DNA of 64,000 bases from a bacterium. GTDB taxonomy: Bacteria; Bacteroidota; Bacteroidia; Bacteroidales; UBA3663. A model generated the notes under the pieces. The model was not told the origin of the DNA. It searched no databases and worked only from the letters and a program-made list of their open reading frames with translations. Positions 51,625-63,843 of this stretch are shown here, piece by piece. A program made the translations under genes and the position numbers. The stretch spans positions 165-64,164 of the forward strand of contig CAVGQN010000007.1 of the NCBI GenBank assembly GCA_963631395.1. The letters run 5' to 3'. Each line of letters begins with the position of its first letter. The stretch's first letter is position 1.

Positions 51625-52140
51625 ATGCGTAAAGAATCGAGAGCAATGGACAGCAAATGGGCCTTGGAGGTAATGCACAAAGCTCCATACATTACCGTAA
51701 GTTTTGTAGATGCCGACGGGAAAGCATACTGCGTGCCTTTGTCGCTCGCATCGGAAGACGATGTGAACTGGTATTTCCACGGTGCCTTGGAGGGCAAGAA
51801 AATGGAAGCCATCGAGGCACACCCCGAGGTTTGTCTTTCGGCCGTAACCCGCTGCACACCTACCGTCGGCCCAAAAGACGGCAGTTTTACGTTGCAATAC
51901 AATTCGGCCATTGCTTTTGGCCAGGCTGAGATAGTCACCGATGACGAGGAAAAGATTCACGGACTTCGCCTGATTTGCCAACGTTTCCTCCCGCAACACA
52001 TGGACGCCTTTGACCAAAGCATAGCCCGTTCTTTATCCCGCACTGCCGTGGTGCGCATTTCAGTTACGGAACCTCCTGTCGGCAAGCGAAAGCAATACGA
52101 CAAAAACGGCGAGGAAATGAAATACGGGAGGATGGAATAA
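51625..52140 (+). CDS. Pyridoxamine 5'-phosphate oxidase-like FMN-binding family protein
   Basis: Track ORF of 171 aa with a split-barrel family pattern (PYITVSFVDADGKAYCVPLS ... AIAFGQAEIVTDDEEK). Confidence 0.75.
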   Translation: MRKESRAMDSKWALEVMHKAPYITVSFVDADGKAYCVPLSLASEDDVNWYFHGALEGKKMEAIEAHPEVCLSAVTRCTPTVGPKDGSFTLQYNSAIAFGQAEIVTDDEEKIHGLRLICQRFLPQHMDAFDQSIARSLSRTAVVRISVTEPPVGKRKQYDKNGEEMKYGRME

Positions 52141-52288: not shown

Positions 52289-53071
52289 TTATTTCTGTCC
52301 CCGGATATTCTCCCTGGAGCGGTTGATGTAGGCGAGCAGGCGGGATGTGTCGTGCTGGCGGATGATGTCGGAGAGCTCGGTCAGCTGCGCTACTATCGAG
52401 TCTATCTGCTCGGGCGAATGGGGATTGAAGAGAATCTCGGTCAGGAGATAATCGTCCTCACTGAGCAGGCCGCGGGCGATGTCCATATGCTTCTTGAACG
52501 TCGTGCCCGGAGCGTCCTGCGGTTTCATCACGCCCGTAAAGGCCAGGGTAGAGACGAAGGGAATGGTCAGCGAGTAGGCAATGGTTTCGTCGTGGCCGGC
52601 GAAGGTGTACTCGAAGATATTGAGCCGCAGACTGGCATAGACATCGTGGAAGAAAGCCTTGCCCGCCTCGTCGCTCTCGCTGATGATGATGGCATAGTTG
52701 CGGCTGAGGTCGCTGAGGTTGGCAAATGTCGGACCGAACATCGGATGCGTCGAGACAAAAGGATGGCCCGAAGCGGCATAGAACTCGGGCAGTCCCGTCT
52801 TGACAGACGCAATGTCGCTCAGCATACAGCGCTTGTCGAGATAGGGAAGCACCTGCTCGAAGACGGGCAAAGTGTTGCTGATGGTCACGGCATTGATGAG
52901 CAGGTCGGGATTGAACTCGCGGATTTCGTCGAAGGTGGTGAACCGGCGTACGTTCAGACAGTAGCGGAGTTTCTCCGCATGGCGGGCATAGACGGCCACG
53001 TCATGGTCCATACATAGTGTATCGGCCATGAACATGCCCATCTTGCCGCTGCCTAGGATTACAATCTTCAT
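52289..53071 (-). CDS. tyrA: Prephenate dehydrogenase
   Basis: Track ORF of 260 aa with an N-terminal Rossmann motif (MKIVILGSGKMG) and an SVK...HPMFGP core. Confidence 0.85.
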   Translation of the reverse strand: MKIVILGSGKMGMFMADTLCMDHDVAVYARHAEKLRYCLNVRRFTTFDEIREFNPDLLINAVTISNTLPVFEQVLPYLDKRCMLSDIASVKTGLPEFYAASGHPFVSTHPMFGPTFANLSDLSRNYAIIISESDEAGKAFFHDVYASLRLNIFEYTFAGHDETIAYSLTIPFVSTLAFTGVMKPQDAPGTTFKKHMDIARGLLSEDDYLLTEILFNPHSPEQIDSIVAQLTELSDIIRQHDTSRLLAYINRSRENIRGQK

Positions 53072-53086: not shown

Positions 53087-54154
53087 CTAGCGGTTGATAA
53101 TCTCCATCTGCCGGCGTACGGACTCCGTGTGGATGGCTTCGAAGACGTCTTTGATGAAGTCTACCCCCATGCCGAGCTGCGCACCTTCCTGACTGCGTTT
53201 GGTCAGAATCTCGTCATAACGCTGGGCCTGCAGCACGGAGATGCCGTTCTCCTTCTTGTACTGGGCCACCTCGCACGATATGCGCATGCGCTTGGCCAGA
53301 ATCTCGAGTATCTTCTCGTCTATCTCGTCAATCTGCAGACGCAGGTCGGCCAGGTCTTCGGTCGTCTTGGCCGTGTCGCGGATGACCAGTGCGCGGAGTA
53401 TCTCCTCGAGCCGTTCGGGCGTGACCTGCTGCTTGGCATCGCTCCAGGCCTCGTCGGGATTGCAATGGCTCTCGATGATGAGTCCGTCGAAGCCGAGGTC
53501 CATGGCCTGCTGACTAAGCGGCTGGATGAGGTCGCGGCGTCCGCCCATGTGCGAAGGGTCGGCGATGATGGGCAGGTTCGGGAAACGACGGCGCAGTTCG
53601 ATGGCAATATGCCAGTTGGGCACATTGCGGTAGATGCTCTTGTCGGCGCTGGAGAATCCGCGGTGTATGACTCCCAGCCTGTGGATACCGGCGCGGTAGA
53701 TGCGCTCGATGCCGCCCACCCAGAGTTCGACGTCGGGGTTGACAGGATTCTTGATGAGCACGGGCACGTCGTGTCCCTGCAGGGTGTCGGCTATCTCCTG
53801 CATGGCGAAGGGGTTGGCCGTGGTGCGTGCGCCGATCCAGAGGATGTCTACGCCAAAGGCCAGGGCAGCCTCGACATGGGCCTTGGTGGCTACCTCAACC
53901 GAAGTGTACATACCGGTTTCGGCCTTGAGTTTCTGCAGCCACGGCAGACCAATCATGCCTACGCCCTCAAATCCGCCCGGCTTGGTGCGCGGCTTCCAGA
54001 TGCCGGCACGGAATACCTTAATGCCACGTGCTGCCAAATCACGACCTGTGGTCAGAACCTGCTCTTCACTCTCGGCGCTGCATGGACCGGCTATTACCAG
54101 CGGACGCTTGGCATCCATGCCCGGCAGCAGTATCGACTCGAAATTCATTTCCAT
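53087..54154 (-). CDS. Bifunctional 3-deoxy-7-phosphoheptulonate (DAHP) synthase / chorismate mutase type II
   Basis: Track ORF of 355 aa. An N-terminal KDSA/AroG-like TIM barrel is followed by a C-terminal CM_2 helical domain (LRLQIDEIDEKILEILAKRMRISCEVAQYK). Confidence 0.88.
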   Translation of the reverse strand: MEMNFESILLPGMDAKRPLVIAGPCSAESEEQVLTTGRDLAARGIKVFRAGIWKPRTKPGGFEGVGMIGLPWLQKLKAETGMYTSVEVATKAHVEAALAFGVDILWIGARTTANPFAMQEIADTLQGHDVPVLIKNPVNPDVELWVGGIERIYRAGIHRLGVIHRGFSSADKSIYRNVPNWHIAIELRRRFPNLPIIADPSHMGGRRDLIQPLSQQAMDLGFDGLIIESHCNPDEAWSDAKQQVTPERLEEILRALVIRDTAKTTEDLADLRLQIDEIDEKILEILAKRMRISCEVAQYKKENGISVLQAQRYDEILTKRSQEGAQLGMGVDFIKDVFEAIHTESVRRQMEIINR

Positions 54155-54242: not shown

Positions 54243-55415
54243 TCAAAGTCCTGCGGCCTGTATGCGCAGCAAAGCTTCCTGCATCTTCTCGAACGGGGCG
54301 CAAAGGCTGATGCGGATGTATCGTTCGCCGTTGTGACCGAAGATGAATCCGGGCGTGATGAAGACGCGCGCCTGCTGCAGCACGGGTTCGGTGACGGACT
54401 CGGCTCCTGCAGCACTGTCGGGAATACGTCCCCACAGGAAGAGGCCGCGCTGGTCGGGGTCAAAGCTGCAGCCCAGATGTCGCATGATCTGCTCGGCGGC
54501 AATGCGGCGCACCTGATAGGCTTCATTCTGACGCTTGTAGTAGTCGGCCGGATTGTGAAGGGCGGCTACGGCAGCCTTCATCATGGGCCGGAACATGCCC
54601 GAGTCGACGTTGCTCTTCACGCGGACTATCCAATCGATGTACTCCTTCTTGGCCACCACGATACCCTGGCGCCATCCCGCCATCGAGTGGCTCTTTGACA
54701 TCGAGTTGAACTCCATGCAGATGTCTTTTGCTCCCGGCACACAGAATATCGACAGCGGCTTGTCGTTGAGGATGAACGAATAGGGATTGTCGTTGACGAT
54801 GACGATATTGTGACGGCGGCCGAAGTCGACTATCTTGCCGAGCAGCTCCATCGTGGCGCAATGGCCCGTCGGCATGTGCGGATAGTTGACCCACATCAGT
54901 TTGACCTCGTCGATGTCCGGACGGGCCTCAAGAGCGTCAAAGTCCGGTTCCCAATCGTGTTCGGGTGTCAGGTCGTAAGTCACTACCTCTGCCCCCACCA
55001 GCCGGCTGACGGACGTATAGGTCGGATAGCCCGGATCGGGCACGAGCACCTTGTCGCCGGGGTTGAGCAAGGCCATACTCACATGCATGATGCCTTCCTT
55101 GGACCCAATCAGGGGCAGCATCTCGGAGGCGGGGTCAAGCGTCACGCCATACCAATGTCCGTAGAAGGAAGCCCAGGCCTCTCTCAGTTCTGGCAGGCCC
55201 ACGTAGCTCTGATAGCTGTGCGCATCGGGCCGCATGACGTCCTCTATCAGGGCCATGACGGTCTCTGACGACGGCTTGAAGTCCGGGCCGCCGATGCCGA
55301 GGTTGATGACGGCAGGGCCGCCCTGACGGTTCATGGCTGCCACCTCCTTGAGCTTGCGCGAGAAGTAGTATTCCTCGACGTGGCCTATTCTTTGTGCGGG
55401 TCTTATCTCTTTCAT
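54243..55415 (-). CDS. PLP-dependent aminotransferase (class I), probably aromatic/prephenate aminotransferase
   Basis: Track ORF of 390 aa. NSMSKSHSMAGWR is the lysine motif. Its start overlaps the pheA stop (ATGA at 55412-55415). Confidence 0.85.
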   Translation of the reverse strand: MKEIRPAQRIGHVEEYYFSRKLKEVAAMNRQGGPAVINLGIGGPDFKPSSETVMALIEDVMRPDAHSYQSYVGLPELREAWASFYGHWYGVTLDPASEMLPLIGSKEGIMHVSMALLNPGDKVLVPDPGYPTYTSVSRLVGAEVVTYDLTPEHDWEPDFDALEARPDIDEVKLMWVNYPHMPTGHCATMELLGKIVDFGRRHNIVIVNDNPYSFILNDKPLSIFCVPGAKDICMEFNSMSKSHSMAGWRQGIVVAKKEYIDWIVRVKSNVDSGMFRPMMKAAVAALHNPADYYKRQNEAYQVRRIAAEQIMRHLGCSFDPDQRGLFLWGRIPDSAAGAESVTEPVLQQARVFITPGFIFGHNGERYIRISLCAPFEKMQEALLRIQAAGL

Positions 55416-56269
55416 CGGTCAAAGATTTCGGTATTCTCCTTGTACTCGCCCAGTATCTGGAAGTCGGTGGCAAAGGGCCGTACGGCGTCCAGGGCATTGC
55501 GGTACTGGATGTAGTCGTCGAAGGTCAGGTCGATGAAAAACCGGTACTCGAACTCGCGGCCGATGATGGGCATGCTCTGTATCTTGGTGAGGTTCATGCC
55601 GTAGAAGGAGAGGATGGTGAGCACTTTGGTCAGCGAACCCTGTGTGTGACGCACGCAGAAGTCGATGCTGGCCTTGTTGATTTCGTCGCGCTTGACGGTC
55701 AGGACCGGTGCGAACTTGTCCTGCAGAATGAGGAAACGGGTGAAGTTGCGCTTGTTGGTCTCTATCCCGCGGGCCAGTATCTCCATGCCGTACAGGTTGG
55801 CGGCATACTCCGAGCAGATGGCGGCATGGCCAACCAGGTTGCGCTCTTTGATGATCTTGGCCGAACCTGCCGTATCGGCCATCTCGGCTACCTTGACATT
55901 GGGCAGGCGCGTCTGCAGGAAGACCTCGCACTGACGCAGGGCTATCGGGTGAGAATTGACCTCGACGAGGTCGTCCATCTTCGTGCCCGGCAGAGCGCAC
56001 AGGACGTGGCTGATGTGCAGGCGATGCTCGCCCACAATCTGCAGTTGCGAGTTGCGCAGCAGTTCGTGGTTCTGCAGCAGGTTGCCGGCTATGGTGTTCT
56101 CGATGGCCACGATGCCCAGTACGCCCGGGTCTGCGGCCAGGGTGTCGAACACGCCCTGAAAGGTCGTGCAGCACACCGTCTCAAGGTCCTGGCCGGCGAA
56201 GTACTGCTTGGCCGCCCACTCGTGGTAACATCCCTTCTGGCCCTGTATGGCCACCTTCATTTTGCTCAT
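55412..56269 (-). CDS. pheA: Prephenate dehydratase
   Basis: The track ORF begins at a GTG (56371) and reads through a terminator hairpin. The ATG at 56269 (MSKMKVAIQGQKGCYHEWAAKQYF) is the plausible start, with ATG 56260 as an alternative. PDT and C-terminal ACT domains are present. Confidence 0.88.
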   Translation of the reverse strand: MSKMKVAIQGQKGCYHEWAAKQYFAGQDLETVCCTTFQGVFDTLAADPGVLGIVAIENTIAGNLLQNHELLRNSQLQIVGEHRLHISHVLCALPGTKMDDLVEVNSHPIALRQCEVFLQTRLPNVKVAEMADTAGSAKIIKERNLVGHAAICSEYAANLYGMEILARGIETNKRNFTRFLILQDKFAPVLTVKRDEINKASIDFCVRHTQGSLTKVLTILSFYGMNLTKIQSMPIIGREFEYRFFIDLTFDDYIQYRNALDAVRPFATDFQILGEYKENTEIFDR

Positions 56270-56281
56270 ATATGCGTTGTA

Positions 56282-56318
56282 TAAAAAAAGAAGTCCCGAC
56301 TTTTTAAGGTCGGGACTT
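56282..56318 (-). terminator. Attenuator terminator of the Phe/Tyr leader
   Basis: On the - strand AAGUCCCGAC-CUUAAAAA-GUCGGGACUU forms a perfect 10-bp stem, followed by C and seven U residues. It ends 13 nt upstream of the pheA ATG. Confidence 0.8.
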
Positions 56319-56363
56319 ATGTGGTTTATGAATTTATCAGCTTTGCTTGTTTCACCGTTTCGC

Positions 56364-56447
56364 TCATGCACACACGCGACTGCCCGACCTTACATCTTCT
56401 GCAAAGTAAAAATAATAATAGGAATAAAATCGTCCAAAAGACTTCAT
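56364..56447 (-). CDS. Phe/Tyr-rich leader peptide (27 aa) of the pheA-tyrA operon
   Basis: Manual translation gives MKSFGRFYSYYYFYFAEDVRSGSRVCA*. Nine of the twelve codons 4-15 are Phe or Tyr. The ORF lies between a promoter and the attenuator terminator. Confidence 0.75.
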   Translation of the reverse strand: MKSFGRFYSYYYFYFAEDVRSGSRVCA

Positions 56448-56479
56448 GTCGGATGTGAAACTTTTATTATTTTCGGCGG

Positions 56480-56511
56480 CAAAGGTAAAGCATATTTTCT
56501 GCACTTCCAAA
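56480..56511 (-). promoter_or_regulatory. Bacteroidetes-type promoter of the aromatic operon leader
   Basis: On the - strand, TTTG at 56511-56508, a 20-nt spacer, then TACCTTTG at 56487-56480. It lies about 33 nt upstream of the leader ATG. Confidence 0.6.
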
Positions 56512-56706
56512 TTTTTGGCAGATTTTTTGCCATTTATATTTTACTTTTCCGACAAAACCGCTTGGAGATAGGGCTTTTTAGCACCTAAAATGCAACTAAT
56601 CGTGCAAAATGCATTATCTTTGCGCTTGTATCGGGACGGACCCGAATCTGTTTGAACAAGACATTATCTACACACTATACCAAATTATAACGTAAAATTT
56701 AAGATT

Positions 56707-63767: not shown

Positions 63768-63843
63768 TGGTCGGGGTGACCCGACTCGAACGGGCGGCCT
63801 CTACGTCCCGAACGTAGCGCGCTACCAACTGCGCCACACCCCG
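63768..63843 (-). tRNA. tRNA-Pro (anticodon CGG), CCA encoded
   Basis: Manual cloverleaf. Acceptor is CGGGGUG/CACCCCG. D arm is GCGC-AGUUGGUA-GCGC. Anticodon arm is CUACG-UUCGGGA-CGUAG. T arm is GCCCG-UUCGAGU-CGGGU. Discriminator A is followed by CCA. Confidence 0.9.

Follow-up and report, generated by a model that had tools for sequence, protein, structure and literature searches.

The sequence studied is a 64,000-nt stretch of a genome of the order Bacteroidales (UBA3663 lineage; GenBank assembly GCA_963631395.1, contig CAVGQN010000007.1, positions 165 to 64,164), hereafter called the window, in which a four-gene operon for the synthesis of phenylalanine (Phe) and tyrosine (Tyr) is preceded by a predicted leader-peptide attenuator. 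The operon lies on the minus strand and encodes, in order, prephenate dehydratase (pheA), a class I/II aminotransferase, a 3-deoxy-D-arabino-heptulosonate 7-phosphate (DAHP) synthase fused to chorismate mutase, and prephenate dehydrogenase (tyrA). An earlier reading of the same DNA, referred to here as the original prediction, had described these genes as an operon making both amino acids, and the four identities were confirmed. The upstream neighbor of the leader is fbaA, a class II fructose-bisphosphate aldolase gene, and because it is divergent and on the plus strand, the hairpin that precedes pheA does not represent the 3′ end of an upstream gene.

Four elements had been proposed upstream of pheA, namely, a promoter, an open reading frame (ORF) for a leader peptide, an antiterminator, and an intrinsic terminator, and each was recovered at exactly the positions claimed for it (Table 1). 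The promoter consists of a TTTG element and the −7 box TACCTTTG separated by a 20-nt spacer, with a putative transcription start near 56473. The leader ORF begins with the ATG at 56447, and 9 of its codons 4 to 15 specify Phe (codons 4, 7, 13, and 15) or Tyr (codons 8, 10, 11, 12, and 14). Downstream of this run, arm 2 (UAAGGUCGGG) perfectly complements arm 3 (CCCGACCUUA) over 10 nt to give the antiterminator helix (2:3). The terminator (helix 3:4), which was also detected independently by a terminator scan, is a 10-bp hairpin followed by a C and seven U residues; the U-tract lies 13 nt from the pheA ATG at 56269, and the hairpin ends 21 nt from it. The sequence CCCGAC is common to arm 3 and the 5′ arm of the terminator, making helices 2:3 and 3:4 mutually exclusive.

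Table 1. Features of the pheA leader region and the operon that follows it, in window coordinates
Feature	Position	Strand	Basis or remarks
−33 element TTTG	56508..56511	−	Read from sequence; TTTG/TTG at the same spacing kept in relatives
−7 box TACCTTTG, Bacteroidetes TAnnTTTG type	56480..56487	−	Read from sequence
Candidate region 1a, UCCGAC	56448..56453	−	Paired with arm 2 (its 3′ half) when the full-length RNA is folded to its minimum free energy (MFE) structure; found only in the window and one related locus (L001), not conserved
Leader ORF, 27 codons plus TGA (56366-56364), encoding MKSFGRFYSYYYFYFAEDVRSGSRVCA	56364..56447	−	Orthologous Phe/Tyr-rich ORFs in 67 loci
Regulatory codon run, codons 4-15	56403..56438	−	4 Phe (all TTT), 5 Tyr (4 TAT, 1 TAC)
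Candidate region 1b, CGAUUUUAU (Arg-Phe-Tyr codons)	56424..56432	−	Can pair with GUAAGGUCG of arm 2
Arm 2, UAAGGUCGGG, antiterminator 5′ strand	56383..56392	−	Starts 10-11 nt after the last Phe/Tyr codon
GUGUGUG block 3′ of arm 2	56369..56375	−	Conserved in alignments A1 and A2
Intrinsic terminator hairpin, AAGUCCCGAC-(8-nt loop)-GUCGGGACUU	56291..56318	−	Consensus terminator scan; −16.7 kcal/mol; covariation
Arm 3, CCCGACCUUA, antiterminator 3′ strand	56305..56314	−	Overlaps the terminator 5′ arm and loop
U7 tract of the terminator, preceded by C	56283..56289	−	Sequence and terminator scan
pheA (prephenate dehydratase), first regulated gene	55412..56269	−	Identity confirmed
Class I/II aminotransferase	54243..55415	−	Equivalent to the aspC3 position in Flavobacterium psychrophilum
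DAHP synthase fused to chorismate mutase	53087..54154	−	
Prephenate dehydrogenase (tyrA)	52289..53071	−	

A comparison of the upstream regions of pheA orthologs, which the original prediction had set as a check, was carried out by scanning for PheA proteins in one genome per species. This yielded 80 loci, mostly from Bacteroidales gut and rumen metagenome assemblies with a few from Planctomycetota and Lentisphaerota, and in 4 of the 80 the upstream DNA was too short for a leader to be judged. The closest locus was 98% identical to the window, and named relatives included Candidatus Liminaster (Bacteroidales incertae sedis). A mini-ORF with 7 to 10 Phe or Tyr residues in a 10-residue segment was identified 65 to 215 nt upstream of pheA in 67 of the 80 loci. 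As a control, ATG-initiated mini-ORFs were scored on both strands of ∼980 kb of related loci; at least seven Phe or Tyr residues in 10 were found in 81 of 9,667 mini-ORFs, and 78 of these 81 were on the pheA strand, no more than 500 nt upstream of that gene. The window contained no second leader-like ORF with a terminator after it. The promoter was likewise shared: in 64 of 69 loci, the leader ATG had a TAnnTTTG −7 box before it. The distance from the G of this box to the ATG had a median of 21 nt across loci (32 nt in the window), which would put the leader ORF very close to the 5′ end of the mRNA.

Several loci showed arrangements that differed from the common one. Phe/Tyr-rich leaders followed by strong terminators were present upstream of pheA in Planctomycetota and Lentisphaerota (L076:2850-3000, L077:2860-3000, and L078:820-1012), with leader peptides MNSTFSNFYYFGFYGFFGYFTRNASGEPVSLLR, MNTVPYGSYYFAFRFGG, and …TARFEYGYAYVFAF, respectively; the L078 leader uses GC-rich TTC and TAC codons, and in L076 the predicted antiterminator partner likewise lies just after the last Phe/Tyr codon. 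One Bacteroidales locus (L026:2710-3000) has lost the Phe/Tyr-rich ORF but retains, upstream of pheA, a box similar to the −7 element and a hairpin similar to a terminator (GGCCCGACAUGCAAAUGGCGGGAUUUUUU); this locus looks like a decayed attenuator. In another locus (L008:2875-3000), the terminator and pheA are separated by a tandem array of approximately eight 11-nt units similar to GGAAGTGACAG, and the gap is 135 nt compared with 13 to 60 nt elsewhere.

Across the leaders, the ATG, the reading frame, and the identity of the Phe and Tyr residues were conserved, whereas third codon positions and the order of Phe and Tyr varied. Both amino acids were represented in all 59 distinct Bacteroidales-type leaders counted, with at least two Phe and at least three Tyr codons in each and means of 4.2 Phe and 5.4 Tyr per leader. 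TTT made up 85% of Phe codons in the leaders compared with 32% in the pheA coding sequences, and this preference for a wobble-decoded codon fits a putative role in sensing Phe; no bias was observed for Tyr (TAT, 57% in leaders and 55% in pheA). Searches of NCBIfam and Pfam with the leader peptide matched no model. In 51 of 69 leaders, a CGA (Arg) codon stands immediately before the first codon for Phe or Tyr (56430-56432, minus strand, in the window). In a Prevotellaceae-type clade this codon falls within a pairing of the early leader with arm 2 (helix 1:2), yet leaders in which that pairing is weak retain the codon as well.

A G+C-rich hairpin followed by a U-tract was present between the leader and pheA in nearly all loci. 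To locate the antiterminator, the best duplex between the terminator 5′ arm and the whole leader was determined locus by locus, and in ∼64 of 67 loci the best partner was at nucleotides 52 to 60 from the ATG. The modal gap between the last Phe/Tyr codon and arm 2 was 11 nt, a spacing that matches the expected footprint of a ribosome, and the median z score relative to dinucleotide shuffles was −3.1. In the window, the 2:3 duplex was predicted at −17.9 kcal/mol compared with −8.9 kcal/mol for dinucleotide shuffles (z score, −4.9), with none of 200 shuffles as good.

Evidence for both helices was also obtained from alignment A1, in which 62 distinct leaders were aligned with MAFFT without structure guidance and the arms nonetheless remain in register. 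For the terminator, 88% of cells were paired and 8 of the 10 pairs had changes on both sides; its covariation score was 0.327 against a shuffle mean of 0.185 (0 of 500 as high), and controls in which the arms were slid scored at most 0.12. For the antiterminator, 71.6% of cells were paired, with a 6-bp core that was almost always paired, and the covariation score of 0.181 exceeded a shuffle mean of 0.080 (0 of 500 as high; slid controls, at most 0.061). The compensatory changes are seen in the pair formed by columns 68 and 157, which is GC in 32 sequences, UA in 28, and UG in 2, and in columns 70 and 155, which form GC in 59 sequences and AU in 3 of Bacteroides and Tannerellaceae types; neither pair was unpaired in any sequence. 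When the segment from arm 2 to arm 3 was folded de novo with RNAalifold without arm 4, helix 2:3 was the only consensus structure. The reading frame through arm 2 differs by clade (…CKVG versus …VRSG), and therefore its conservation is at the RNA level and not at the peptide level. In 30 of the 62 leaders, the terminator stem contains a mismatch, mostly C·A, at columns 157 and 173, where the antiterminator is perfectly paired; the energy gap between the competing folds is therefore narrowed, and the mismatch may be a form of tuning that brings the two helices closer in stability.

A second conserved block, YGUGUG(C), lies 6 to 10 nt 3′ of arm 2 (A1 columns ∼80 to 92) in almost all lineages and in any reading frame. 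RNAalifold identified no pairing partner for it, and an extension of the antiterminator through the conserved UGUG and CAAUA blocks was rejected because no consensus pairing was obtained. Inspected by eye, the GUGUG block and the G-run of arm 2 are spaced in a way reminiscent of the elemental pause consensus G−10/Y−1/G+1.

With Phe/Tyr codon runs in 67 of 80 loci and covariation in both helices, the ortholog comparison supports the attenuator interpretation of the original prediction: the leader, the promoter, the terminator, and a shared-strand antiterminator with compensatory changes are all conserved. The element is very probably a ribosome-mediated leader-peptide transcription attenuator of the pheA-aminotransferase-DAHP synthase/chorismate mutase-tyrA operon. 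In the proposed mechanism, transcription would start a few nucleotides downstream of the Bacteroidetes-type promoter, and a ribosome would begin translating the 27-codon leader. A shortage of charged tRNA-Phe or tRNA-Tyr would stall the ribosome within codons 7 to 15 with its leading edge just short of arm 2; the free arm 2 would pair with arm 3 as it emerges, the 5′ arm of the terminator would be sequestered, and RNA polymerase would continue into pheA. Where both amino acids are plentiful, the ribosome would traverse arm 2, and after its departure region 1 could capture arm 2, allowing the 3:4 hairpin and its U7 tract to form and transcription to end ∼13 nt before pheA. The sequence elements, with their conservation, geometry, and covariation, were observed; that the leader is translated, that ribosomes stall on it, and that read-through depends on Phe and Tyr are expectations of the model.

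Folding of the window RNA, also proposed as a check in the original prediction, was constrained to mimic the ribosome footprint and gave results consistent with this scheme. With a ribosome at any of codons 8 to 15, the MFE structure of the nascent RNA (before arm 4) contained helix 2:3. For the full-length RNA, the terminator state was predicted at −45.3 kcal/mol and the forced antiterminator state at −42.1 kcal/mol, and therefore the outcome would be decided kinetically, as in classical attenuators.

The nearest known counterpart is from Flavobacterium psychrophilum, in which a leader element (THC0290_N_0195) was annotated upstream of pheA-aspC3; its transcription start site was mapped, and read-through was reported for nutrient-poor growth conditions (PMC9723704; Guerin et al. 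2021, Table S7, SI D9). Both organisms belong to the same phylum, and both operons start with pheA and then an aminotransferase gene. The F. psychrophilum leader (MNTNNTFYSNNSFYFYWNIGRDCYMVI) is rich in Phe, Tyr, and Trp and, as in the window, is 27 amino acids long. Analysis of the published sequence placed arm 2 at nucleotide 56 (−14.7 kcal/mol) and the end of the stop codon at nucleotide 84 and predicted a terminator of −13.7 kcal/mol; in the window, the corresponding values are nucleotide 55, nucleotide 84, and −16.7 kcal/mol. A UCCCG-type terminator 5′ arm followed by a U-tract is common to the two elements. They differ in class (Flavobacteriia versus Bacteroidia), in arm 2 (GGGAUUG versus GGUCGGG), and in the leader, which in F. 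psychrophilum has a Trp residue and fewer consecutive aromatic residues. Furthermore, the F. psychrophilum element is backed by the authors' transcriptome, whereas the window element is known from sequence alone, and the published study includes neither a comparative or covariation analysis nor a description of a Bacteroidales family. Judged by these predicted features, the window element is the same element as the F. psychrophilum pheA leader, in another class of the phylum.

A mixed Phe-Tyr-Phe leader has also been reported for aroR-aroF of Corynebacterium glutamicum (Neshat et al. 2014, as summarized in PMC11802643). From that summary, the aroR leader is similar to that of the window in that mixed Phe/Tyr codons precede an aromatic-pathway operon including DAHP synthase, and it differs in having three regulatory codons instead of nine, in phylum, and in the first gene. 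The statement in the original prediction that a combined Phe and Tyr leader is unusual was therefore too strong, as the leaders of F. psychrophilum (PMC9723704) and C. glutamicum (PMC11802643) precede it. The E. coli pheL-pheA attenuator (Rfam Phe_leader, RF01859), as far as it is covered in PMC3082878 and PMC11802643, shares with the window element a short leader ORF, clustered Phe codons, alternative helices, and an intrinsic terminator. However, pheL contains Phe codons only and precedes one bifunctional gene, whereas the window leader combines Phe and Tyr codons ahead of a four-gene operon for both amino acids, has a Bacteroidetes-type promoter, and shows a 1:2 helix that is weak or clade specific.

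An Rfam search of the locus at E values of up to 10 returned no match to Phe_leader (RF01859), and the best match to a leader family was Thr_leader at 16.7 bits (E value, 3.5), compared with a gathering score of 55. Sub-threshold matches to the small RNAs (sRNAs) ncr982, GibS, and MicC were rejected because they were driven by the terminator only. A T-box or metabolite riboswitch fold was not matched in Rfam, and RNAalifold predicted no conserved structure besides helices 2:3 and 3:4. Neither Rfam nor NCBIfam nor Pfam contains the Bacteroidales pheA leader family. A recognized leader-peptide attenuator family of the same phylum is the Bacteroidetes tryptophan peptide leader RNA, an existing motif cited in the supplementary information of the F. 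psychrophilum study, which itself lists elements similar to its pheA leader for hisG, trpE, and ilvE (PMC9723704). The tryptophan leader has Trp codons and is located upstream of the trp operon, and no Rfam leader family reaches its gathering score in the window. We take the Trp leader motif to be the "Bacteroid-trp" motif of Weinberg et al. 2010. In operation, the window element is predicted to resemble pheL and trpL; it lies outside Rfam Phe_leader and fits best as the Bacteroidales member of a pheA leader type of Bacteroidota, one previously noted in a Flavobacterium.

Full-text literature searches identified no description of a Bacteroidales pheA leader. Attenuators in Bacteroidetes and Chlorobi were reportedly described by Vitreschak et al. 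in 2004 (FEMS Microbiol Lett), perhaps with pheA among them. Bacteroidetes fall outside the coverage of Naville & Gautheret 2010, and the Bacteroides thetaiotaomicron transcriptome atlas mentions just generic small ORFs "reminiscent of leader peptides."

Several observations weigh against the attenuator reading, and some of them concern the window itself. Its nascent RNA folds into the antiterminator when no ribosome is present, and its stop codon lies 22 nt downstream of where the arm 2 core begins, a position at which a ribosome would cover 0 to 2 of the 6 core nucleotides; by comparison, a ribosome at the stop codon masks all 6 in 38 of 50 scored leaders. Stop placement is variable among 63 distinct leaders, with a UAA immediately 5′ of arm 2 in about one-quarter, a stop codon within 12 nt after the core start in about another quarter, and one further downstream in the rest. 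The 1:2 partners in the window are weak, at approximately −9 kcal/mol compared with −17.9 kcal/mol for 2:3, and the slightly better of the two, the UCCGAC just 5′ of the ATG, is not conserved. Only the Prevotellaceae-type clade shows a consistent 1:2 helix (CCGAUUUUAY:GUAAGGUCGG), at −8 to −14 kcal/mol, and this helix is weak in Muribaculaceae and Bacteroides types; a universal 1:2 anti-antiterminator helix was accordingly rejected as a family-wide feature. Given the stop distance, termination in the window under repletion would have to rely on the ribosome crossing arm 2 during synthesis of arms 3 and 4, on later 1:2 pairing, or on both, and would depend on the relative timing of the ribosome and RNA polymerase. 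Of the two-helix logic put forward originally, the mutual exclusivity of the helices stands, but the scheme is incomplete in the window. The remaining points concern the wider comparison: independent compensatory events are few, at roughly three to four clade-level switches; no leader was found in four Bacteroidales loci with sufficient upstream DNA (L026, L045, L052, and L057); and the B. thetaiotaomicron atlas supplements examined contain no entry for the prephenate dehydratase locus. In addition, the C. glutamicum aroR leader, the only mixed leader to have been tested, responded to Phe limitation and not to Tyr availability, according to the account given in PMC11802643.

This last result raises the question of whether the same attenuator could effectively sense Phe only, with the Tyr codons contributing little, for example, if charging of tRNA-Tyr is rarely limiting. 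The wobble-codon bias seen for Phe and not for Tyr is in keeping with such a restriction, but the retention of at least three Tyr codons in all 59 distinct leaders is not, and Tyr codons outnumber Phe codons, which would be hard to explain if they were inert. The operon also contains tyrA besides pheA. Sensing restricted to Phe is therefore considered unlikely, though it retains some plausibility.

Three other alternatives were considered. The leader region could be primarily a stand-alone sRNA or small-protein gene that ends at the hairpin, with pheA driven separately and the complementarity between arms 2 and 3 incidental. A terminated product of ∼190 nt would indeed accumulate under repletion, the sub-threshold Rfam sRNA matches described above could be cited in its favor, all of them terminator driven, and trans-acting attenuator-derived sRNAs and leader peptides are documented in Sinorhizobium, as far as the available accounts describe them. 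However, the 13 nt from the U-tract to the pheA ATG leave no room for a promoter, the element is always upstream of pheA with arms 2 and 3 covarying, and a role in trans would supplement attenuation and not substitute for it, making this explanation very improbable. Control could also be exerted on translation, with the 3:4 hairpin occluding the pheA initiation region and the 2:3 fold opening it. Bacteroidetes are believed to initiate translation with the help of A/U-rich, unstructured sequence ahead of the start codon and not of a Shine-Dalgarno site, and the window hairpin ends 21 nt before the pheA ATG. Nevertheless, a canonical U-tract follows the hairpin in almost all loci, the distance from hairpin to pheA ranges from about 6 to 135 nt, which is unfit for start-site occlusion, and the F. 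psychrophilum authors describe transcriptional read-through (PMC9723704); translational control is thus highly unlikely. Finally, antitermination might be driven by a factor other than the ribosome, for example, by contact with a tRNA in the manner of a T-box, by a metabolite riboswitch, or by an RNA-binding protein, with the mini-ORF a by-product of U/A-rich sequence. Nothing specific speaks for this, beyond the U-rich composition, through which stop codons are absent from the reverse strand as well. The lack of any Rfam family match at the relaxed E value, the absence of conserved structure besides the two competing helices, the constancy of the ATG, frame, and Phe/Tyr identity despite variable third positions and residue order, and the footprint-like 11-nt spacing to arm 2 leave it with hardly any credibility.

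The annotation supplied with the window contains two long ORFs that mask the leader region, as pointed out in the original prediction: a pheA ORF extended to a GTG start (55412-56371, minus strand) and a 113-amino-acid ORF on the plus strand (56247-56588). Both overlap the terminator and are unconserved in relatives, and they were rejected as genes. An in-frame pheA extension reaches into the leader in just 7 of 69 loci, and the open stretch on the opposite strand has a median length of 63 amino acids in the loci of relatives. The local annotation can be corrected accordingly, with both long ORFs treated as spurious and the pheA start placed at 56269. Elsewhere in the window, a 171-amino-acid ORF (51625-52140, plus strand) convergent with tyrA resembles NimIJ (E value, 3e−18) and NimABCDEF (E value, 1.5e−16). 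At 66 bits against a curated cutoff of 270, it is a 5-nitroimidazole reductase-like member and not a called resistance gene. A tRNA gene at 63771-63843 (minus strand) was the sole Rfam match at the gathering threshold in the whole 64-kb window.

The understanding of attenuation is unchanged by this element, as the mechanism is a textbook one and a matching element had already been annotated in a Flavobacterium. What is added is how widely it occurs in Bacteroidales, that both helices covary, that codons for Phe and for Tyr are always present together, and that the stop codon is variably placed. A more speculative proposal, which we consider rather doubtful as a whole, is that the leaders form an uncatalogued Bacteroidota-wide attenuator family with two inputs (Phe or Tyr) and look-alikes in Planctomycetota and Lentisphaerota. 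In such a family, arm 2 would be masked mainly by the ribosome and not by a 1:2 hairpin, and the YGUGUG block would act as an RNA polymerase pause that synchronizes transcription with translation in bacteria without Shine-Dalgarno-led initiation. With its 62 sequences, the alignment could serve as the seed of an Rfam family for this leader, which current RNA libraries and protein libraries alike miss, and the predicted element offers a compact natural Phe/Tyr-responsive switch for engineering of Bacteroides. For the organisms themselves, leaders of this kind probably regulate the synthesis of Phe and Tyr across a large set of Bacteroidales from gut and rumen.

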